Positions 3,743 through 55,225 of a DNA stretch of 64,000 nucleotides are shown one piece after another (position 1 is the first letter of the stretch; each line of letters starts with the position of its first letter). Below the pieces are notes generated by a model. It made no database searches. It worked only from the letters and a program-made list of their open reading frames with translations, and had not been told where the DNA came from. The stretch is from a virus. Both the position numbers and the translations under genes were made by a program. Where the stretch lies: positions 1 through 64,000 of the IMG/VR virus record IMGVR_UViG_3300027852_000003; one strand, written 5' to 3'.

Positions 3743-3779
3743 GGCTATACTCCTCTCATTTAATGTTAAAGTAAAACAT

Positions 3780-3962
3780 CTATGACGCTGCTCCTGTCCT
3801 TGATCTTGACCCTGCTCCTGTCCTTGATCTTGACCATGACCTTGATCTTGGACTTGATCCTGTCTTTGACATTGATATTGACCCTACTCTTGACCCTACT
3901 CTTGACCATGACCATGACCATGCTCCTGTCCTTGACCCTACCTTTAAGCAACCTATATTCAT
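3780..3962 (-). CDS. Arg/Ser/Gly/Trp-rich low-complexity basic peptide (60 aa)
   Basis: This is the only one of three overlapping frames with a canonical AAGGAGG-8nt-ATG start (ATG at 3962). Confidence 0.4.
   Translation of the reverse strand: MNIGCLKVGSRTGAWSWSWSRVGSRVGSISMSKTGSSPRSRSWSRSRTGAGSRSRTGAAS
3785..3945. repeat. Hexanucleotide-periodic tract (CTTGAY-like units)
   Basis: On plus, every second codon is TTG/CTG/CTA/ATG. All three overlapping ORFs at 3766..3967 derive from it. Confidence 0.9.
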
Positions 3963-4633: not shown

Positions 4634-4825
4634 CTAATAATCTACTCTAATTTCAGTTACTTGTACAATCTTGGCAATCACAACTTTGGCTAACTTTTCG
4701 CCCTCTACAGTTTCATGATCCTCGATAGTCCCAGCAGCCTCCACCTGCGCTTCTTCTATCGTCTCGAAATATTCTACTGACGGATAGTAAGGATTGTCAA
4801 TAGTTACAATAAATTCATCTGGCAT
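4634..4825 (-). CDS. Small acidic protein (63 aa)
   Basis: ORF track entry, rich in Glu/Asp, with AAGGAGGTGATT upstream of the ATG. Confidence 0.6.
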   Translation of the reverse strand: MPDEFIVTIDNPYYPSVEYFETIEEAQVEAAGTIEDHETVEGEKLAKVVIAKIVQVTEIRVDY

Positions 4826-7689: not shown

Positions 7690-7800
7690 TCGCTAAGGAA
7701 GGATTTGAACCTTCGATCAACTCCTATCTCATACTGTTGGGGCATGACTCCCTATCCTTTGAGAAACAGAGTTTGCCTTACCAAACTTGGCTACTATGCG
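7690..7800 (-). ncRNA. tRNA-like element with an oversized (about 45-nt) anticodon loop region (pseudo-tRNA, interrupted tRNA or tRNA mimic)
   Basis: On the minus strand: T arm GAAGG-TTCAAAT-CCTTC, D arm GCC-AAGTTTGGTAA-GGC, and anticodon-stem candidates ACTCT/GGAGT enclosing 45 nt. The acceptor CGCATAG/CTTAGCG has two central mismatches. The element is flanked by the 12-bp inverted repeat 7651..7662/7801..7812. Confidence 0.4.
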
Positions 7801-14300: not shown

Positions 14301-14480
14301 TTATAATTTTCTGACTATTACGTCTTGTACCTTATTACATTTTAAACAAGTTCTAGTTTGCCGCACCTCTATATACGGCACTTCTTGACCTTGAACATTT
14401 TTGGGGGCAATCCGCCCAAGAATTTTTATTCCTCGCTTTTCATACTGTTCCCAGTTTGTCCACTTATGTATAAAACACAT
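14301..14480 (-). CDS. Small CxHKW zinc-ribbon protein (59 aa)
   Basis: MCFIHKW...CLKCNK. Below the track's cutoff. The 5' 105 nt plus 11 nt of leader are duplicated at 1..116. Confidence 0.5.
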   Translation of the reverse strand: MCFIHKWTNWEQYEKRGIKILGRIAPKNVQGQEVPYIEVRQTRTCLKCNKVQDVIVRKL

Positions 14481-14491
14481 AATACCCCCCT
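14376..14491. repeat. 116-bp perfect direct repeat, copy B
   Basis: Identical to 1..116. Confidence 0.95.
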
Positions 14492-14502
14492 TTAATTAAA
14501 CC

Positions 14503-15877: not shown

Positions 15878-15895
15878 AACTACCTCCTTTGATTT

Positions 15896-16040
15896 TATTG
15901 ATTATACGCCCCTTGCTTTGCCATGGACTCTATCTTTCCCTCGACTAATTAGCGTGGCCTTTGCTAAACGAAGGCGGCTTAAATTGACTCCGAGTCGTCC
16001 CTAAGCTGGGCTGCCATGCAGCAAGTAACAAGGGGCGCAA
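15896..16040 (-). ncRNA. Candidate structured RNA in a 179-nt gene-free gap
   Basis: CGCCCCTTG (15897..15905) pairs with CAAGGGGCG (16031..16039), plus CTT/AAG and CATGG/CCATG extensions and an internal GCCTT/AAGGC hairpin. There is no ORF longer than 12 codons. Confidence 0.25.
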
Positions 16041-16056
16041 AACGATTTTAATCTCC

Positions 16057-16962: not shown

Positions 16963-17397
16963 TTAAAGGCTATATTTCCCCGCATCTACTTCCCATTTAT
17001 GTTTTGATCTTTTCTTCCACAGAACAAAAGCTTGTTTTTTGTGTTTCTCAAAATCACATCTAAGACATTTGTTCACCTCTATGAAATGATCTACAACTTT
17101 CTCATAATCTAACTTACCTTTAGCTGCCAAAATGCCAGCTAAGCCTATATGCTTAACATGATGGCATAAAGTACAAAGAGAGATAAAGCCTACCAATTTT
17201 TGCTTGTAGTTGTGGTCATCATATTTCCATATCTCATGGCAATGAAACTGGTGGCTATTTTTTTTGCAGATCCCACATTTATGCTCATATTTAGCATAAG
17301 TTTCTTTTCTTACTTTATCCCACTCAGTCTTTGACATCAGACTTCGCAAGTTATTGTACCAAGATGTACTTGGGACTAATTCAATGGCAAGTTTCAT
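16963..17397 (-). CDS. HNH/zinc-finger nuclease-like protein
   Basis: Spacing of CGICKK...HCHEIWKY...LCTLCHHVKH is typical of HNH-type domains. Confidence 0.6.
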   Translation of the reverse strand: MKLAIELVPSTSWYNNLRSLMSKTEWDKVRKETYAKYEHKCGICKKNSHQFHCHEIWKYDDHNYKQKLVGFISLCTLCHHVKHIGLAGILAAKGKLDYEKVVDHFIEVNKCLRCDFEKHKKQAFVLWKKRSKHKWEVDAGKYSL

Positions 17398-17418: not shown

Positions 17419-17892
17419 TTATCTCAATTCAAACTGGGATCTCTTTTTTTCTACGATTGGTTGTTCTCCTTTTAAAACTTCTTTGTGAATTCTAAGAACA
17501 TCACGAACGGTGCTACACATCCCGCCTATTTGAGATTCTATTTTATATTGCTTTAACTCTTCACTGTCGTTGTCCTCTATGTAGCAAGAGGAATATGGCC
17601 TATATTGGCAATCCTCAACTAATTTTTTTGCTGTGGCATATACCTGAGGATCTACTCCATTATCAAAACGGGAACATTTCAGGCATCCACTCCAAAAAGT
17701 AGGATCACCTGAATTGTCTACTGTTTCGAGTGGTTCTAATGCCCCACCACACTGTGAGCAAACCCCGCTTATACTGTCCTGGCATTGTTGCTTCGTAATT
17801 TTATATTCCACATTACCCCCTTTGGAGTCTATCGCCCAAACACAGCCCGTAATTTTCACTGCATCTAATAAGGTTCTGTTTTTCTTCCTCAT
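17419..17892 (-). CDS. Hypothetical Cys-rich protein (157 aa)
   Basis: ORF track entry with CSQCGG...CLKC. Confidence 0.75.
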   Translation of the reverse strand: MRKKNRTLLDAVKITGCVWAIDSKGGNVEYKITKQQCQDSISGVCSQCGGALEPLETVDNSGDPTFWSGCLKCSRFDNGVDPQVYATAKKLVEDCQYRPYSSCYIEDNDSEELKQYKIESQIGGMCSTVRDVLRIHKEVLKGEQPIVEKKRSQFELR

Positions 17893-18419
17893 GCTTTATC
17901 CCTCTAAAGTCGTTGTGATATCTGGCAAGTACCATCCTGTCCCCTTCCTTTTTGAGTCCTAAAGTATCTTCGATGTAACATTTCTATTTTCATTGTTTTC
18001 CTTTCTGGTGGGTAATTGTTATGCCCTCTGTGTTTCAGTCCAGGCGGTTTGTGCCAGGCACGTTCGTAGGGGAAAAGTGGTACTCATTTACGTTGCCGAT
18101 TGGTTACGGCGGCCCCACCGGGCATCCTATCCTCACATTGCCAGCTTTGCTATTTTCTGTTCGCTACACGTATCAAAAGATCGTGGCCAAAATACCCTAT
18201 GGGCTATGGCAACTACTCGTTACTAAGTTTCACATTCTGGATGCGCGTCCTGTTTTCCTCCCGCTTTCGTTTTATGTGTCACAAAGGGCATAACCATAGT
18301 TCCCTCCTACTCAATTTTGTGTTAAATGGTGCGGGTTCTGTTTTTTGCCCCTGGAAACCCGCAAAACAGGGGAGGAGAAAATCCGGTTTATTATCGCCAA
18401 CCGGCAGGCGGTTTCAATT
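17893..18419 (-). ncRNA. Candidate large structured non-coding RNA (GC-rich island); strand inferred
   Basis: There is no credible minus-strand ORF. GC is elevated. Interleaved stems lie at 18331-18337/18356-18362 and 18348-18353/18367-18372. A 15-bp helix joins 18018-18032 and 18280-18294, and its single mismatch is G-U only on the minus strand. Confidence 0.35.
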
Positions 18420-18608
18420 CTAAAAGTCTTGCAACATTCTCTTCCATGTCTGGTATAATTCAAAAACCGGATATTTGCGCCTTGCCTTTGCTAAAAACTC
18501 CCTTCTTTCCTTCTCCGCTTTGTAAATTGTGGCTATTCCGTAACGTGCCCACAAGTCCTCTTCGGTTATCGGCTCTGCGAAGAGATTACGGAGTTTAACG
18601 AGATTCAT
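18420..18608 (-). CDS. Hypothetical protein (62 aa)
   Basis: ATG at 18608 follows TTGGAGGTAAATCG. Confidence 0.6.
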   Translation of the reverse strand: MNLVKLRNLFAEPITEEDLWARYGIATIYKAEKERREFLAKARRKYPVFELYQTWKRMLQDF

Positions 18609-18631
18609 CGATTTACCTCCAAGAATAAAAA

Positions 18632-18904
18632 TCAAAAAAGCTTCAACTGTTTATCAATAATTTGTGCTTTCCGGATTATTTTGGGAGTGGATAAAGTCGT
18701 GCTTCCGGTAATTTCAAAATGGAGAATACCTTCTTTGCCGCTTAGAGTACATTTTATGGCAAAAGCTGCCTTTTCTTTGGTTTCTTCAACATTCAAAGTG
18801 ATTTTTTCCACCAAGTCATCAACCATGTCTCCTATATCATTCAAAATTTGATCTTTCGCTCTGATTTCAATTACTTCGTTTATTCGTGCATCTGCTATGT
18901 TCAT
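18632..18904 (-). CDS. Hypothetical protein (90 aa)
   Basis: ORF track entry with AAGGAGGGGATC upstream of the ATG. Confidence 0.65.
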   Translation of the reverse strand: MNIADARINEVIEIRAKDQILNDIGDMVDDLVEKITLNVEETKEKAAFAIKCTLSGKEGILHFEITGSTTLSTPKIIRKAQIIDKQLKLF

Positions 18905-18915
18905 GATCCCCTCCT

Positions 18916-19950
18916 TTAAATTAATGACGTGCCAGGTTCAATCCCTAACTTCTCTTTTTTCACCTCAATGGCTTCTTCAATACGTCCTCCGCTTTCAGGA
19001 TCAACAGCCATTATTTCCTCAATTTTTTCCTTGTTGTTCCTGATCCAGTTATTGAGATGTTTTTCACTCTTGATATCCGTTTTAATATGGGCAACAAAAT
19101 TATCGGCTATCATTTTTGCTCTACCTATTTCTTCCGAGAGTGCTGATTCAGATTTCGGGGATGCCTGTGCTGTCTTTGTTTGCGCTGCTCTGTCTTCATC
19201 TTCCCAAGCCGGACAGCCTTCTCTATCTTCGCATTCATTGTTGCAGAAACTTTTTAAAACCTGGTCGTTTTTTCGCTCAGGACAGAGGACAAAAGACTCG
19301 GTAGTTGCAGGTTTTTCTTTTTCCAAGATAAACCGTTTTTGTTTTTTGAGTTTTTCCTTTAACACTTCTTTTTTTGCATCGGTTTTTTGCTCGGTTTCAG
19401 CGTTCATAACTACAGGGTCGATACTTAATTCTCCGACAGAGGGAATTTCTTCTTGTGAATACAAGCCGCCCAAATCTTCTGGCAATGCTTCTCTTAACGC
19501 CTGGACTAATGCCACTTTTTTTAACATAGTTCTCGGTTTTTCAGCCCACATACGGTTAGGCGTTCCATCTCTTTTTACCCCTACATATTCTTCATAATCA
19601 ACTTCGCACTTGATGGGCACTTGATATCCTTTCATATATACTTTTGCCCATGCTATTTGCCCATCTTCCGAGACGCCGGTTTCATGCCCCTGATATTTTG
19701 GATTTCGGTAGGCTCGTTTCAAAAAAGTTTCTTTCCCTGTAACTATCGTTGCTTTTTCCGCCCCATATTTGATTAAGTAAACTTCCCTTAAAAACGGATT
19801 CAATTTCTGGTACTTGCAGAGAGCAAGGAACATCATTATTTCCTGTTCTGTGATATTACCCGCCCCGCTTACCAAATATTTTTTTACAATATTTGGGGAT
19901 AGTGTGATTTCTCCGTATCCTGTTTCATATTTTACAATTTGCTCATTCAT
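18916..19950 (-). CDS. recT: RecT-family single-strand annealing recombinase
   Basis: Contains LALCKYQKLNPFLREVYLIKYG, TGKETFLKRA, RMWAEKPRTMLKKVALVQALREA. It is adjacent to a YqaJ-type exonuclease. Confidence 0.85.
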   Translation of the reverse strand: MNEQIVKYETGYGEITLSPNIVKKYLVSGAGNITEQEIMMFLALCKYQKLNPFLREVYLIKYGAEKATIVTGKETFLKRAYRNPKYQGHETGVSEDGQIAWAKVYMKGYQVPIKCEVDYEEYVGVKRDGTPNRMWAEKPRTMLKKVALVQALREALPEDLGGLYSQEEIPSVGELSIDPVVMNAETEQKTDAKKEVLKEKLKKQKRFILEKEKPATTESFVLCPERKNDQVLKSFCNNECEDREGCPAWEDEDRAAQTKTAQASPKSESALSEEIGRAKMIADNFVAHIKTDIKSEKHLNNWIRNNKEKIEEIMAVDPESGGRIEEAIEVKKEKLGIEPGTSLI

Positions 19951-20872
19951 TTATTCCTCCTTTCAAAATATATGGCCTAAATGCCTTAAATGGCTTTCCT
20001 TTTTTTTCATATTGGCTTAAAGCAATTTCCGGGTGTTCAGAGCTAAGTTTTTTCTTGTCAAAAATTATCCTCCCGGCCTGCTCCTGATAGTACCCCCGGA
20101 AATTAAATCCTTCTATAACCCCCGCTCCTTCAGATTCCATCATGCCTGTAAGCTTTTCTTTCGCCGTTTTTTCAAGCTCTTCCCATTCCTGCCTAATCGC
20201 CTTAGCTTCGGTGAAATCTGTTATTGCCTCTTCCCACTCCGGGCTTGTTACCTGCACCAACTCCCCGCCAATGGCAGGCAAATCAATGGCCGATTCTTCT
20301 TCCGGGGGCGGCGTTCCGGCTTTCACCATTTCCCAAAATTTTGTGTCCTTTTCAATAATGAAATCAATTAATTCATCATCTCGCTCAACATCAAAATGAA
20401 TTAAATCCCATTGTTCGGCATTGAACACTCCAAAGGCTCCCCATTTGCAGCCAGTAACGGCAAGGTAATGCTGCAACTGGATTTGGTAATAATCCTGCAA
20501 TCCTTCCCTTTTGCATTTTCCAAAAACTTGGAGGCCTGGACATTTGATTTCGAGAATACCCGCCCCTTTTTCCAAATCCATAATTTTTCGATCAACATTT
20601 CCAAGAAAAAAGTCAAGTTGAGGATGTTTAAATAATTTTGTTTCTATAATCGTCTCCCTCCCTGTCTCCGCTTGATACATATTAGCCACAAGAGGCTCAA
20701 GCATCGCCCCTCTTTTCATTGCTGGGGTTTCTGTTTCTTCCACTACTAATCCCCGTTTTTCCAGATATAAATCATGAATATTTTTAAACGGGCTAACTCC
20801 CAAGATAACAGGGCTATCGCTCCCCCCGATACCCTTTCGCCGTTCCTGCAACTGCTCAAGTGTTAATGACAT
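19943..20872 (-). CDS. YqaJ/lambda-Exo-like recombination exonuclease
   Basis: Contains RRKGIGGSDSPVILGVSPFK, MKRGAMLEP, ILEIKCPG. ATG at 20872 follows AAGGAGGG. Confidence 0.85.
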   Translation of the reverse strand: MSLTLEQLQERRKGIGGSDSPVILGVSPFKNIHDLYLEKRGLVVEETETPAMKRGAMLEPLVANMYQAETGRETIIETKLFKHPQLDFFLGNVDRKIMDLEKGAGILEIKCPGLQVFGKCKREGLQDYYQIQLQHYLAVTGCKWGAFGVFNAEQWDLIHFDVERDDELIDFIIEKDTKFWEMVKAGTPPPEEESAIDLPAIGGELVQVTSPEWEEAITDFTEAKAIRQEWEELEKTAKEKLTGMMESEGAGVIEGFNFRGYYQEQAGRIIFDKKKLSSEHPEIALSQYEKKGKPFKAFRPYILKGGINE

Positions 20873-21083
20873 CTTTCTTTCCCTCCTTAAGTTTTCTTTC
20901 GCAAAATGCAATGGCATTGTCTATCGCCGTTTCTAAATCTTCGTGTTGTTGACTCCCCTTCTCCCAACGTAGAAAACTCTCTTCTAAGTAAGAGCCTACT
21001 TCCCAAAGGTTATATTTTATAATCGTTAGCGAGTCGCCGCACAATTCATTAAGATATAACATTTTCTCTTTAAGGCTTTTCAT
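20856..21083 (-). CDS. Hypothetical protein (75 aa)
   Basis: ORF track entry. Confidence 0.55.
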   Translation of the reverse strand: MKSLKEKMLYLNELCGDSLTIIKYNLWEVGSYLEESFLRWEKGSQQHEDLETAIDNAIAFCERKLKEGKKDVINT

Positions 21084-22440: not shown

Positions 22441-23250
22441 TTACCCCGTTTTATATATTTTTTTCAATCCGAAAAACATTTCTAACTGTGCCCTGATGAT
22501 CCAATGCCATCCATCCCAACTGCATATCTTTTTCTTTTCTTCCATTGTAGGAAGATTTTTGTATGTCTTCCAACAAAGTTTTTCGTTTAAAATATCTTCT
22601 TTCCATTTCTGAATCGGGGGCATTTCCGCCCAGAATTTTCTTTCAAAGGGCAAGGTGCGCGTCTGAAGCGATTTTCCTGCAATATCATAATTAAAAGAAA
22701 AAATATACTCGCCGCTTATAATTGATCCCAGACTTATAATCGCCCCTTTGCTTATAATACACTCACCGCTTTTGATCGACCCTTGGCCTTCAATTCTTCC
22801 CTTACTCTCAATCACCCCGCCGCTTAGAATTGACCCTTTACTTATAATTGCCCCGTCGCATTCAACCGATCCCCCGCTTATAACCGACCCCCCGCATTCA
22901 ATTGATCCCCCGCTTTTGATCCACTCGCCGCTTATAATTGACCCTTTACTTATAATCAATCTTTTACTCTCAATCCACTCGCCGCTTTCAATTGATCCTT
23001 GGCTTTCAATCACCCCGCCGCTCTTAATTGTTCCCTTACTTTCAATTGATTCTTTGCTGATAATCGACCCTTGACTTTCGATCCACCCAGCCCGGAAAGA
23101 CTTTTCCATTGTTGCGGTTCCCAAGAAAGTAAAATCGCTCCTATCAGACAAAACGGGGCACAAAAACTTTACATCATCGCCAAAAATGACCTCGGCTTTA
23201 TCTTCATCATAATATTTTTTTATTTCTTCTTGGTCTTTGATAACTATCAA
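22441..23250 (-). CDS. Hexapeptide-repeat beta-helix protein (21 uninterrupted hexads)
   Basis: ESQGSI ISKESI ESKGTI KSGGVI ... ISGEYI, with strict 6-aa period and an aliphatic residue at the last position of each hexad. Confidence 0.85.
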   Translation of the reverse strand: MIVIKDQEEIKKYYDEDKAEVIFGDDVKFLCPVLSDRSDFTFLGTATMEKSFRAGWIESQGSIISKESIESKGTIKSGGVIESQGSIESGEWIESKRLIISKGSIISGEWIKSGGSIECGGSVISGGSVECDGAIISKGSILSGGVIESKGRIEGQGSIKSGECIISKGAIISLGSIISGEYIFSFNYDIAGKSLQTRTLPFERKFWAEMPPIQKWKEDILNEKLCWKTYKNLPTMEEKKKICSWDGWHWIIRAQLEMFFGLKKIYKTG

Positions 23251-25943: not shown

Positions 25944-26140
25944 CAGGTAACTAAATTGGCACAAAAAACTAAGTTAAAACAAATAGTTACAAAAAGGAAA
26001 AACAAAAAACAGGTAGCAGAATAGGTAACAGGCAGGTAACTAAATTGGCACAAAAAACTAAGTTAAAACAAATAGTTACAAAAAGGAAAAACAAAAAACA
26101 GGTAGCAGAATAGGTAACAGGCAGGTAACTAAATTGGCAC
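25944..26140. repeat. Tandem direct repeat, 89-bp unit x 2.2
   Basis: Units start at 25944, 26033 and 26122. The first two are identical by eye and the third matches for 19 nt. Confidence 0.95.
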
Positions 26141-26206
26141 TGCAACTTTTTAAAATCATTGTATTTTTTAAAACCGGAAAAGTGGAAATAGGTAACAGGA
26201 ATGTAT

Positions 26207-26246
26207 GAGGAAAAAGAAAGAGAAAGCAGAAAGAAAAAGAAAGAGA
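26207..26246 (+). repeat. Polypurine tract 1 (40 nt with one C)
   Basis: GAGGAAAAAGAAAGAGAAAGcAGAAAGAAAAAGAAAGAGA. Confidence 0.9.
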
Positions 26247-26344
26247 TTCCTATGCTAAACAGGTAGAATTAGCATTAAGTGCCAGAAGTTGTTACAAGTT
26301 TTCCCATTTTAAGGCACAATAAAGCAGCAAAAAAGCGGGTTTTT

Positions 26345-26547
26345 AACTACTTGCTTTCATTGAACTATTTAAAACCAAAAAAACTGCATAGGTAACAGAA
26401 ATGGTTATTCAACTATTTGTTTTCATTCAACTATTTAAATTCAAAAAAATGGAAATAGGTAACAGGCAGGTAACAGAAATGGATATCTAACTACTTGCTT
26501 TTGTTGAACTATTTAAAACCGTATTTTCGGAAATAGGTAGAAAATAA
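26345..26547. repeat. Three degenerate ~60-78-bp repeats (AACTAYTTG...GAACTATTTAAA...ATAGGTAACAG)
   Basis: Units start near 26345, 26404 and 26482. Each ends in an ATAGGTA(A/G) iteron. Confidence 0.8.
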
Positions 26548-27305: not shown

Positions 27306-27364
27306 GTGTCTAATTTTCGACATATGTAGTGTCTAATTTTCGACATATGTTGCAAAAATGCAAC
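27306..27364. promoter_or_regulatory. 23-bp tandem duplication plus palindrome upstream of the late gene run
   Basis: GTGTCTAATTTTCGACATATGT(A/T) occurs at 27306-27328 and 27329-27351. It overlaps GTTGCAAAAATGCAAC at 27349-27364. Confidence 0.5.
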
Positions 27365-53843: not shown

Positions 53844-54158
53844 ATGAAAACCATTGTTTTGTGTTCCAAGAAAGTAAAACCACGTAAGAATGATAAAGAA
53901 ATTGTGCTGGAATCTACGTCATTTTTTAAATATGCTTTAGAGAATTACCCGGAAAATTTGAAAGGAATAGAAAAAATTTTGACCGTAGGCAGGATTATAG
54001 AAAAAATAAATTTGGCAGAAGGGTCACAAAGTTTAGAGTTGGAAGATGCTGAATTTGATATTTTGAAATTATCTTCTGACAAGGTTTCGTTTAACCCGAT
54101 CATGTTACATGCTCCAGAGATTTTGGAGGCTATTAAAAAAGCAGAAAAGGAGGGATAG
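53844..54158 (+). CDS. Hypothetical protein (104 aa)
   Basis: ORF track entry. Confidence 0.65.
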   Translation: MKTIVLCSKKVKPRKNDKEIVLESTSFFKYALENYPENLKGIEKILTVGRIIEKINLAEGSQSLELEDAEFDILKLSSDKVSFNPIMLHAPEILEAIKKAEKEG

Positions 54159-54159
54159 C

Positions 54160-54582
54160 ATGTCTTTTTGGTCTGGGAGTAAAAGTAAAACATATGCTCC
54201 TTATGAAAAGTTTTCGGATGAATATAAGGGTATTGTAGAGCCTTATTATGCCGATATCTTCAAACCTGAGTATTATGATTATTCGTTAGGCGACTTTTTA
54301 TCAGGAGCGCAATCTCAAAGGGCTAGAGGGCAAAGGGGTATGGAACAAAATCTTGCGCTAAGAGGGCTGTCTTACGGGTCAGGATTCGCAGGGTATGAAC
54401 GGTCGAAGCTTGACAGGTCGTATATCTCCAACATAGCAAAAGCCTACTTGCAAGCAAGGTCGACTGAAGAAGAAAGACAACGATTAGCCATGTCAGGGAT
54501 AACTGACATGTTTGCGGGGGCTAGTACTTCTCATGGGCCAGGGATTGGGTATTCCTTTATCGGCAAATTGCTTGGAAGTTAA
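54160..54582 (+). CDS. Virion-module protein, tandem paralog A (140 aa)
   Basis: AAAAGGAGGGATAGC precedes the ATG at 54160. MSFWSGSKSKTYAPY... parallels the next gene. Confidence 0.7.
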   Translation: MSFWSGSKSKTYAPYEKFSDEYKGIVEPYYADIFKPEYYDYSLGDFLSGAQSQRARGQRGMEQNLALRGLSYGSGFAGYERSKLDRSYISNIAKAYLQARSTEEERQRLAMSGITDMFAGASTSHGPGIGYSFIGKLLGS

Positions 54583-54655: not shown

Positions 54656-55225
54656 ATGAGTATTTGGTCTGGAAGCAAAAGTAAAACATATGCCCCTTAT
54701 CAAAAAATGCCTGATGAGTATAAAGGTAAGGTAGATCCTTATTATGCAAAAATTTTCAGTCCCGGATATTATGATTATTTGCTGGGCGATGTTTTGGCCG
54801 GAACGCAAACTCAAAGGGCTGGCGTTCAAAGAGAGATGGAACAAAATTTGGAACTAAGAGGATTGTCCCGTAATCCAAGATTCGCAGGGTATGAACGTTC
54901 AAAACTTGATAGATCATACCTTTCCAACATAATAAATGCCCGCTTAAAAGCAAAGGCAATGGAAGAAGAAAGACGGCGATTAGCTTTGTCAGGGATAACC
55001 GGCATGTTTTCCAGCTCTGGGCTTTCTCGTGGGGCAGGGCTTGGGCATGGAATAATTGGTGGAATCGGGGGGCTATTAGGTAAGGCAATATCAGCATATT
55101 TAAGCAAAGGCAAAAAAACTCCGGGGGGTAGTGGCTCTATCAGTGGTTCTACCGGTAGTTCTACCAGCGGCTATAGCAGTGGTTCTAGCGGTGGCTATAG
55201 TGGTGGTGGCGAAATTCGTACTTAA
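54656..55225 (+). CDS. Virion-module protein, tandem paralog B with a Gly/Ser-rich tail (189 aa)
   Basis: MSIWSGSKSKTYAPY... with the C-terminal GGSGSISGSTGSSTSGYSSGSSGGYSGGG. Confidence 0.7.
   Translation: MSIWSGSKSKTYAPYQKMPDEYKGKVDPYYAKIFSPGYYDYLLGDVLAGTQTQRAGVQREMEQNLELRGLSRNPRFAGYERSKLDRSYLSNIINARLKAKAMEEERRRLALSGITGMFSSSGLSRGAGLGHGIIGGIGGLLGKAISAYLSKGKKTPGGSGSISGSTGSSTSGYSSGSSGGYSGGGEIRT

Follow-up and report, generated by a model that had tools for sequence, protein, structure and literature searches.

What might a phage keep in half a kilobase of GC-rich DNA that carries no gene? The question is raised by positions 17893-18419 of a 64,000-nucleotide (nt) stretch of DNA (called the window throughout; positions 1 to 64,000 of IMG/VR record IMGVR_UViG_3300027852_000003), which covers most of one uncultivated phage genome of ~67 kb. 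This gap between minus-strand genes is the largest same-strand gap in the window that is free of open reading frames (ORFs), and an earlier note on this DNA, written from the letters alone, suggested that all 527 nt of it might belong to one large structured RNA. Comparison with a second uncultivated phage narrows the subject to a smaller element, 18015-18297 on the minus strand, in which a core appears to be conserved as non-coding DNA between two complementary arms. These arms form a putative closing helix, here called P1, whose pairing appears to have been kept while its sequence was replaced. The element is probably a new small RNA gene, whose internal fold and function are unproven.

The conserved core and its closing helix

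The second copy of the element was found by means of a spurious ORF. Three mutually overlapping ORFs run through the gap on the plus strand, as the earlier note had listed, and these are shadow ORFs of an A-poor strand. An exhaustive HMMER protein search with one of them, P0055, gave a single real match, P0058, which is 68% identical over residues 29-87 and lies on a contig of 862 nt (L020; ENA ERZ27237542) from the same sample as L014, a contig that carries a relative of the gene upstream of the gap. No further members were present in the 90% clusters of P0055 and P0058. At the DNA level, positions 387-636 of L020 align with window positions 18032-18277 at 79% identity counting gaps, and 205 of the 234 ungapped columns of the core are identical (88%; 0.876). 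The final alignment combined a gap-penalised global alignment with arms placed by structure, MAFFT having misaligned the variable region. Indels of 4, 6, 11+3, 1 and 1 nt break the reading frame, and tblastx between the window and L020 finds all six frames about equally similar. Of the changed codons, a fraction of 0.20-0.36 is synonymous, whichever frame is taken, and across the core amino-acid identity (0.75-0.81) is lower than nucleotide identity. Besides the longest invariant block, identical in both copies (Table 1), other invariant blocks of 13+12+12 and 12+13 nt alternate with indel-rich spots, and the core differences comprise 21 transitions and 8 transversions. The frame-breaking indels and the equal similarity in six frames indicate conservation of non-coding sequence, and the core is thus conserved, as far as the two sequences tell, with no reading frame of its own. 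The opposite outcome envisaged in the earlier note, a decayed protein gene emerging from tblastx in one consistent frame, did not materialize.

The stretch shared by the window and L020 reaches precisely to the inner ends of a 15-nt inverted repeat, the same pair of segments that the earlier note had singled out as a 15-bp long-range helix. This helix therefore brackets the core. L020, in which the element with its arms occupies 371-655 on the minus strand, also has complementary arms at the corresponding position, made of other sequence: in the window the arms are GUUAUGCCCUUUGUG, whereas in L020 they are GUGCGAU..GCAGG, with GUGCGAU pairing to AUCGCAC and GCAGG to CCUGU, a sequence unrelated to the window arms. 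When the arms are placed by structure, 10 of 11 shared pairs have changed on both sides. The duplex energies are -26.4 kcal/mol in the window and -19.8 kcal/mol in L020, compared with -7.3+-2.5 kcal/mol for shuffled flanks (p ~0.001 for L020). When pairs of 24-nt windows spaced 247 nt apart are taken from real sequence, -19.8 kcal/mol or lower is attained at 0.09-0.33% of positions, so that the coincidence of the helix with this position in L020 has p ~0.001-0.003, and the window helix ranks first among all 24-nt duplexes with ~250-nt spacing on the minus strand of the window. Consistent with this, RNAalifold, applied to the whole element with P1 included, yields a z-score of -4.4 and counts 12 compensatory pairs where 2.6 would be expected. 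The comparison between phages matters here, in that an inverted repeat of at least 15 nt with at most one mismatch arose in 20 of 300 shuffles of the gap and would be marginal on its own. P1 thus appears to be kept as a helix of 12-15 bp while its sequence has been replaced. The earlier observation that the odd position of the helix is a G-U pair only if the minus strand is the RNA applies to the two sequences alike: in each copy the duplex of the minus sense gains ~5 kcal/mol in stability over that of the plus sense, because the imperfect positions are G.U on the minus strand and A.C on the plus strand.

The gap is non-coding for protein in any frame, be it as an intact or as a decayed gene, in agreement with the earlier note. 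Each minus frame is interrupted by a mixture of TAA, TAG and TGA stops, and hence neither an intact nor a stop-codon-recoded gene is hidden there. A codon-usage model built from the long genes of this phage gives positive scores to the flanking genes in their own frames but negative ones to all six frames across ~18000-18420, and the period-3 signal across the gap is weak. P0055 has no Pfam or PHROG match, no word-index homolog, and an unconfident predicted fold (predicted local distance difference test score 53, predicted template modelling score 0.24); with no family match, such a fold and frames that are not kept in L020, it is ruled out as a real protein. The statement that minus-strand ORFs here reach only 22-29 codons needs amending at the gap edges, which are overlapped by a 50-codon ORF starting with TTG (18311-18463) and by a 40-codon ORF (17813-17935).

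In composition, too, the gap stands apart. Its GC content is 0.46, whereas the other large gaps lie at 0.29-0.32, making it the sole large GC-rich gap, and the island within it reaches 0.46-0.49 compared with 0.40 for the whole window. The sequence strings and coordinates quoted in the earlier note are all exact, as is its count of 204 G+C in the 420 nt of 18001-18420 (48.6%; window mean 39.8%). This places the gap in the top ~1% among 420-nt windows, and coding DNA at 50.9, 52.3 and 28.3 kb is as rich. On the minus strand of the gap G (0.25) and C (0.22-0.24) are balanced, whereas C makes up just 0.14-0.16 of the flanking genes. A second, smaller GC-rich gap (0.47; 179 nt) lies between minus-strand genes at 15878-16056 and has no similarity to the island.

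The distribution of the element is that of inserted DNA. The island is missing from the relatives of the downstream gene (L002-L009 and L015-L019), in which at most 80 nt separate that gene from its preceding neighbour, and likewise from the RecT relatives (L010-L013) and from the upstream-gene relative, L014. One of the downstream-gene relatives, L009 (4364-5266), has 900 nt without called genes after that gene, and a canonical transfer RNA (tRNA; 71 bits) lies there at 4717-4790. The module itself occurs in two different gene contexts, each time shortly downstream of a small same-strand gene; in L020 the 5′ arm starts ~13 nt past the stop codon of a 63-amino-acid (aa) minus-strand gene that is unrelated to the 71-aa gene of the window. 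The L020 element is flanked by a 27-nt direct repeat, identical at 24 of 27 positions (best shuffle, 19), in which the upstream gene's 3′ end is present twice (...RDWEFIVESK and stop before the element, RDWEFVVESQKS and stop after it). Such a duplicated gene end is a recombination scar, typical of recombination rather than transposition. A strong promoter-like sequence, TTGACA-17-TAATAT, lies 48 nt downstream of the L020 element, and between the upstream gene and the element no promoter was found; the L020 copy reads as a module that may have been recombined between a gene and the next promoter. In the window the best flanking 27-mer match is 17/27, which is chance level, and the sole repeat of note is a 12-nt AAAAACAGAACC at 18345-18334 and 17883-17872.

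An RNA reading and its alternatives

A core free of reading frames, together with a helix that keeps its pairing despite replaced sequence, is most simply explained by a minus-strand RNA. Moreover, phage genomes are tightly packed, and a conserved, mobile, non-coding stretch of 0.3 kb therefore likely does something. The reading that we favour, in which our confidence and our doubt are evenly balanced, is that 18015-18297 is a discrete, horizontally mobile non-coding module of ~283 nt that encodes an RNA closed by P1. It would resemble the morons, the independent units of ‘more DNA’ in tailed phages that were first defined in HK97 and HK022 (PMC3594210). Transcription of the element would take place together with that of the early genes on the minus strand; the window copy might in addition use the promoter-like site at 18417-18390, and the L020 copy would form the 3′ end of the transcript from its upstream gene. 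Its functional product would be the RNA, with 5′ and 3′ ends held together by P1, and this helix could protect or delimit the RNA or serve as a processing site for a double-strand-specific nuclease. Spread among phages would occur via recombination, as a moron with an RNA in place of a protein gene. If asked to guess, we would propose an RNA that acts in trans on a host or phage factor. A more ambitious version, which we consider doubtful, is that the two copies are the first members of an undescribed class of phage RNAs, with a ~250-nt core and a covarying stem, carried as a protein-free moron and acting in trans early in infection, perhaps by serving as a decoy for a host factor or defence or by inhibiting it.

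Several observations weigh against this reading. Without P1, the consensus fold of the core has a z-score of -1.0 and 1 compensatory pair, where 1.0 would be expected, and a structure predicted from either sequence survives in the other no better than under a null of shuffled substitutions, whichever strand is folded. Folded singly, the L020 element has z = -0.63; the corresponding value for the window element, z = -3.14, is inflated in that its ends had been chosen at the helix. Two sequences are too few for a test of the interior of the core. No further copies were found in IMG/VR, GTDB, plasmids or GenBank phages with the probes used, that is, by BLAST on GenBank phages and plasmids, an exact pattern in IMG/VR, and degenerate peptides in IMG/VR and GTDB (185,579 species genomes), so that selection over longer times is conjectural; the metagenome DNA scan covered RecT relatives only and was made when the core was still unidentified. 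Neither the window nor L020 has a detectable terminator after the element. The strand call rests on two wobble positions, which would agree by chance about 1 time in 4, and a paired inverted repeat would equally suit a function at the DNA level. The suggestion of a structured RNA stands insofar as the element is non-coding, probably an RNA, closed by P1 and read from the minus strand, whereas structure in the interior is without statistical support. Inspection by eye provides leads in the interior, all from a hand alignment and likewise without statistical support: an A-U to G-C change in GCCA/UGGC (18210-18207/18189-18186), two swapped apical pairs in a hairpin at 18185-18167, GUGG/CCAC in one copy versus CCGG/CCGG in the other (18118-18115/18080-18077), and an L020-only insert that folds as UGC-GAAA-GCA.

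It is informative to set these results beside the proposal in its original extent, that is, the whole 0.5-kb gap as one large ornate RNA of the GOLLD or ROOL kind with an H-type pseudoknot at 18331-18372. The gap is indeed large, GC-rich and non-coding, with a promoter-like site at its 5′ end, and the pseudoknot loops of 4, 2 and 10 nt, the third of them A-rich, suit the minus strand when read by eye. However, the shared element of ~283 nt accounts for only part of the gap; the leader that would hold the pseudoknot is absent from L020, and the ~200-nt tail is likewise specific to the window. Interleaved 6+6 complements occur at ~28 loci in the window and at ~21 (12-35) in shuffles, so the pseudoknot topology is at chance level. 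The same applies to the proposed GTTGCC/GGCAAC helix, one arm of which has become GCCGCC in L020 and the other of which is partly deleted, and to the repeat of CAGGCGGTTT, a match expected by chance. The folding energy of the 527 nt relative to shuffles has z = -1.07 on the minus and +0.35 on the plus strand, and no 120-nt sliding window inside the gap falls below z = -1.8 on either strand. Searches against Rfam 15 (4227 models, including GOLLD, ROOL, group I and II introns, RNase P, tmRNA, 6S, riboswitches and ribozymes) gave no match within the gap at gathering thresholds in a scan of the window, nothing at E<=10 on 17600-18800, and noise when the element alone from the window and L020 was searched with the most permissive filters (best E = 0.52, a fragment of a mouse long non-coding RNA); ARAGORN reported nothing in the gap. 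The kinship with GOLLD, ROOL, introns, tmRNA or RNase P that the earlier note had wished to see checked thus found no backing from covariance models. Also, the nearest tRNA-like match is 10 kb away, while GOLLD and ROOL often lie near tRNA islands (PMC12286853). A single ornate RNA spanning the gap is therefore highly improbable. A likeness of short core motifs to conserved regions of RNase P RNA was dropped, no RNase P model giving a score. A group I or II intron was rejected as well: the upstream gene has its own stop, the downstream homologs are complete from GTG 17811, and no intron model matches. The strongest local folding signal nearby (z = -4.0 in a 120-nt window) is at 17610-17729 on the minus strand, within the downstream coding region.

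The regions on either side of the element deserve brief mention. In the leader, positions 18330-18345 (AAAACAGAACCCGCA, minus sense) match the AAAACAGGACGCGCA of an invariant block (18242-18257) at 13 of 15 positions, and AAAACAGAACC recurs at 17882-17872; these matches may be chance. The tail (17812-18014) has no homology to any fetched locus and no counterpart in L020, and its coding scores are near zero or negative.

Four further alternatives have to be weighed. That the element works as DNA in cis, as a hairpin, cruciform or protein-dimer site with a core of binding sites, is improbable in our estimate but far from negligible. The neighbouring RecT/RecE-type module, of which RecT and the RecE-like exonuclease lie 0.5 kb upstream, might use it for recombination, for the priming of replication or for regulation. 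An inverted repeat kept as complementarity suits DNA hairpins just as well as RNA, the interior is conserved in sequence without a structural signal, and neither a terminator nor another clear transcript boundary is apparent. Yet the G.U positions fall on the same strand in both copies, a matter relevant only to a single strand, and the gene upstream of the L020 copy is unrelated to that of the window. Furthermore, neither iterons nor an enrichment of short motifs is seen in the island, 4 kb separate it from the replication initiator gene, and a better candidate for an origin or operator exists in the iteron-rich, AT-rich DNA at 25.9-26.5 kb and the tandem 22-mers at 27306-27350. An origin of replication within the island was rejected on the grounds of the missing iterons and this better candidate. 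The occurrence of the element in two unrelated contexts, its absence from relatives and a GC content unlike its surroundings might instead suggest non-autonomous mobile DNA resembling a miniature inverted-repeat transposable element, with the arms as terminal inverted repeats and a transposase encoded elsewhere; an 8-nt ATAAAAAA just outside each L020 arm even resembles a target-site duplication. But with an interior identity of 88% and no sequence relation between the arms of the two copies, the pattern is opposite to that expected of ends recognised by a transposase. The window has no target duplication, the 27-nt repeat of L020 is a duplicated gene end and points to recombination, and no other copy was found, be it within the 64-kb window (which also lacks any similarity to the element that could be a template repeat of a diversity-generating retroelement) or, with the probes used, in the 185,579 species genomes, IMG/VR, plasmids and phages. 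With the arms as the least conserved part and no other copies, we consider a transposable element of this type quite unlikely.

The small protein that might come from the 5′ third of the element raises a different possibility, as an ATG ORF with the same end point lies in the same frame in both copies (24 codons in the window, Table 1; 23 codons in L020, MKAGEHKLKAGGKQDAHPGCETY). The product would have 23-24 residues (...HK-KAGGKQDAHP-CET), and its start codon, inside the 5′ arm of P1 in both copies, would be occluded by the helix to control translation; in the window it follows a perfect AGGAGG-N5-ATG. This would account for just ~75 of the 245 conserved nucleotides. The changed codons include 1 synonymous and 3 non-synonymous changes, a moved stop among the latter, and none of the frames is distinguished from the others; the two N-termini (MVMPFVT and MKAGE) show no relation to each other, the L020 ATG has no ribosome-binding site, and the codon-usage score is negative in this frame. 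We regard a functional small protein as very improbable, and the ORF is probably incidental. Finally, the similarity might reflect recent transfer rather than selection, in which case the element would be functionless DNA exchanged between two related phages. There are just two copies, both from uncultivated phages, transitions dominate as they would under neutral drift, and interior structure is unsupported. Against this, the limits of homology are the inner ends of a helix kept with different sequences, which drift or arbitrary breakpoints would not give; because the homology boundaries coincide with a maintained helix, we accord neutral exchange only a slim chance. In addition, the invariant blocks, including the 32-nt one, alternate with indel-rich spots, and the genome is tightly packed here, its gaps few and mostly AT-rich. 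The RNA closed by P1 remains the explanation that we prefer.

Genomic setting and other features of the window

Genes for early functions, recombination and replication lie on the minus strand of the window, running leftward from ~27 to 0.4 kb, and structural genes take up the plus strand from ~29.5 kb onward. The large terminase is only 27-29% identical to those of GenBank phages, across one third of its length. All genes neighbouring the element are on the minus strand (Table 1).

Table 1. Positions of the element, its flanks and the neighbouring genes in the window
Feature	Positions	Strand	Remarks
P1 5′ arm, AUGGUUAUGCCCUUUGUG	18280-18297	minus	inverted repeat; 15-nt perfect/wobble part 18280-18294
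P1 3′ arm, CACAGAGGGCAUAACAAU	18015-18032	minus	one U.G wobble on minus = C.A mismatch on plus
Conserved non-coding core, ~245 nt	18033-18279	minus	homology to L020 ends 18277; frame-breaking indels
Longest invariant block, 32 nt, GAAAGCGGGAGGAAAACAGGACGCGCAUCCAG (minus sense)	18237-18268	minus	identical in L020
24-codon ORF, MVMPFVTHKTKAGGKQDAHPECET	18223-18297	minus	AGGAGG-N5-ATG; start codon in P1 5′ arm
Antisense 90-aa ORF (P0055)	18021-18293	plus	shadow ORF; probe that found L020
Window-specific leader, 122 nt	18298-18419	minus	absent from L020; outside conserved element
Sigma70-like promoter match, TTGAAA-16-GATAAT	18417-18390	minus	in leader
Hairpin CCGGTT/AACCGG	18404-18383	minus	in leader
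Orphan tail, ~200 nt	17812-18014	minus	29-codon ORF 17904-17993 and in-frame 27-codon extension from ATG 17892
RecE-like exonuclease	19943-20917	minus	
RecT	18916-19950	minus	
90-aa gene	between RecT and 71-aa gene	minus	
Upstream gene, 71 aa (62 aa as called)	18420-18635	minus	relative P0057, 71% identical
Downstream gene, 130 aa, CxxC...CxxC motifs	17419-17811	minus	corrected start GTG 17811
HNH endonuclease	16963-17397	minus	

The limits of the gap have to be redrawn on one side. That there is a large gene-free gap is correct, but its right boundary is not where the earlier note put it: the true start of the downstream gene is GTG 17811 rather than ATG 17892, since homologs begin there and the ribosome-binding site is conserved, and the protein then has 130 aa instead of 157 aa. 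Each of the 53 relatives found for the downstream protein falls short of the 157 residues of this ORF, the relative P0010 aligns with this ORF from residue 28 on, and DNA homology with L002-L005 begins at 17823 and takes in the conserved ribosome-binding site AAAGGGGGT. On the other side, the sole relative of the upstream 71-aa gene at the DNA level is L014, with similarity confined to 18605-18481. Given homology breakpoints at 18481 upstream and 17823 downstream, the orphan DNA runs from ~17824 to ~18480, longer than first described. In L014 (638-1030) the gene for a single-stranded DNA-binding protein (SSB) comes 15 nt after the 71-aa homolog; tblastn with the L014 proteins detected no SSB homolog or remnant in the 64-kb window.

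Other features of the window were noted in passing. Rfam places a tRNA match at 7690-7800 on the minus strand, scoring 37.4 bits where the gathering score is 29. Its D- and T-arms are intact, but a 45-nt insert takes the place of the 7-nt anticodon loop and two acceptor pairs are non-canonical; ARAGORN makes no call, and the locus may be a tRNA-like element, a pseudo-tRNA or a tRNA with an interruption. Positions 1-121 and 14376-14496, 14.4 kb apart, form a direct repeat of 121 nt with 98% identity, which may be longer, as the first copy is cut by the window edge. The AT-rich and iteron-rich region at 25944-26540 contains an exact 89-nt tandem duplication (25944-26121) and related repeats of 40-90 nt with AGGTAAC; together with two exact tandem 22-mers (GTGTCTAATTTTCGACATATGT) at 27306-27350, it is likely the origin and/or operator region heading the early genes. 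Periodic DNA repeats with a period of 18 nt (22775-23084, in ORF 22441-23250) and of 12 nt (3771-3958) suggest repeat-containing proteins. Lastly, a tandem duplication of ~400 nt with 76-77% identity (54146-54552/54642-55048) extends across the adjacent ORFs 54109-54582 and 54656-55225, which are probably paralogous late-region genes.

Comparison with morons and structured RNAs

Few non-coding RNAs of phages are understood; among those characterised in recent preprints, one reportedly hijacks host replication and others are said to mimic CRISPR guides. With two members, the element described here is a lead and not yet a discovery. If it is a true RNA gene, it would represent a compact new family with a clear architecture, in which the closing stem offers an experimental handle, and it would mean that morons could carry RNA cargo. 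One point of method may be useful elsewhere: spurious antisense ORFs in protein databases can be used as probes for homologs of non-coding DNA.

The likeness to morons lies in the setting. The element adds DNA between genes that adjoin one another in related phages, where gaps of at most 80 nt are found and, in L014, the SSB gene follows after 15 nt; its GC content of 0.46-0.49 exceeds the 0.40 of the window and the ~0.30 of other gaps; the window copy has a promoter-like site; and spread appears to be by recombination, judging from the duplicated gene end at L020. Unlike morons, it has no protein gene, no terminator was found in either copy, and L020 has no promoter upstream of the element.

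GOLLD and ROOL, the large ornate RNAs invoked by the earlier note, often occur near tRNA islands, and many GOLLD members exceed 800 nt (PMC12286853). The element differs from them in its size of ~283 nt, in the absence of any covariance-model match, in having its sole tRNA-like match in the window 10 kb off (7690-7800), and in that no architecture of multiple pseudoknots has been demonstrated for it. ROOL is roughly twice the size of the element. Like GOLLD and ROOL, the element is non-coding, GC-enriched and phage-borne, and its 5′ and 3′ regions are base-paired together.

Retron msr-msd RNA is flanked by the a1/a2 inverted repeats, whose sequence varies between systems. In contrast to a retron, the element is adjoined by no reverse transcriptase gene, its neighbours being the 130-aa CxxC protein, the HNH endonuclease, RecT and the RecE-like exonuclease. 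Still, it too consists of a few hundred non-coding nucleotides bounded by a variable inverted repeat. In 6S RNA, Y-like RNAs, RNase P RNA and tmRNA the ends form a closing stem, and the processing stems of ribosomal RNA are cut by RNase III. Although the element matches none of 6S, RNase P or tmRNA, even with the most permissive filters, it shares the architectural principle of RNAs with closing stems: a long helix joins its ends and encloses a conserved interior, and the sequence of the stem varies while its pairing is kept.

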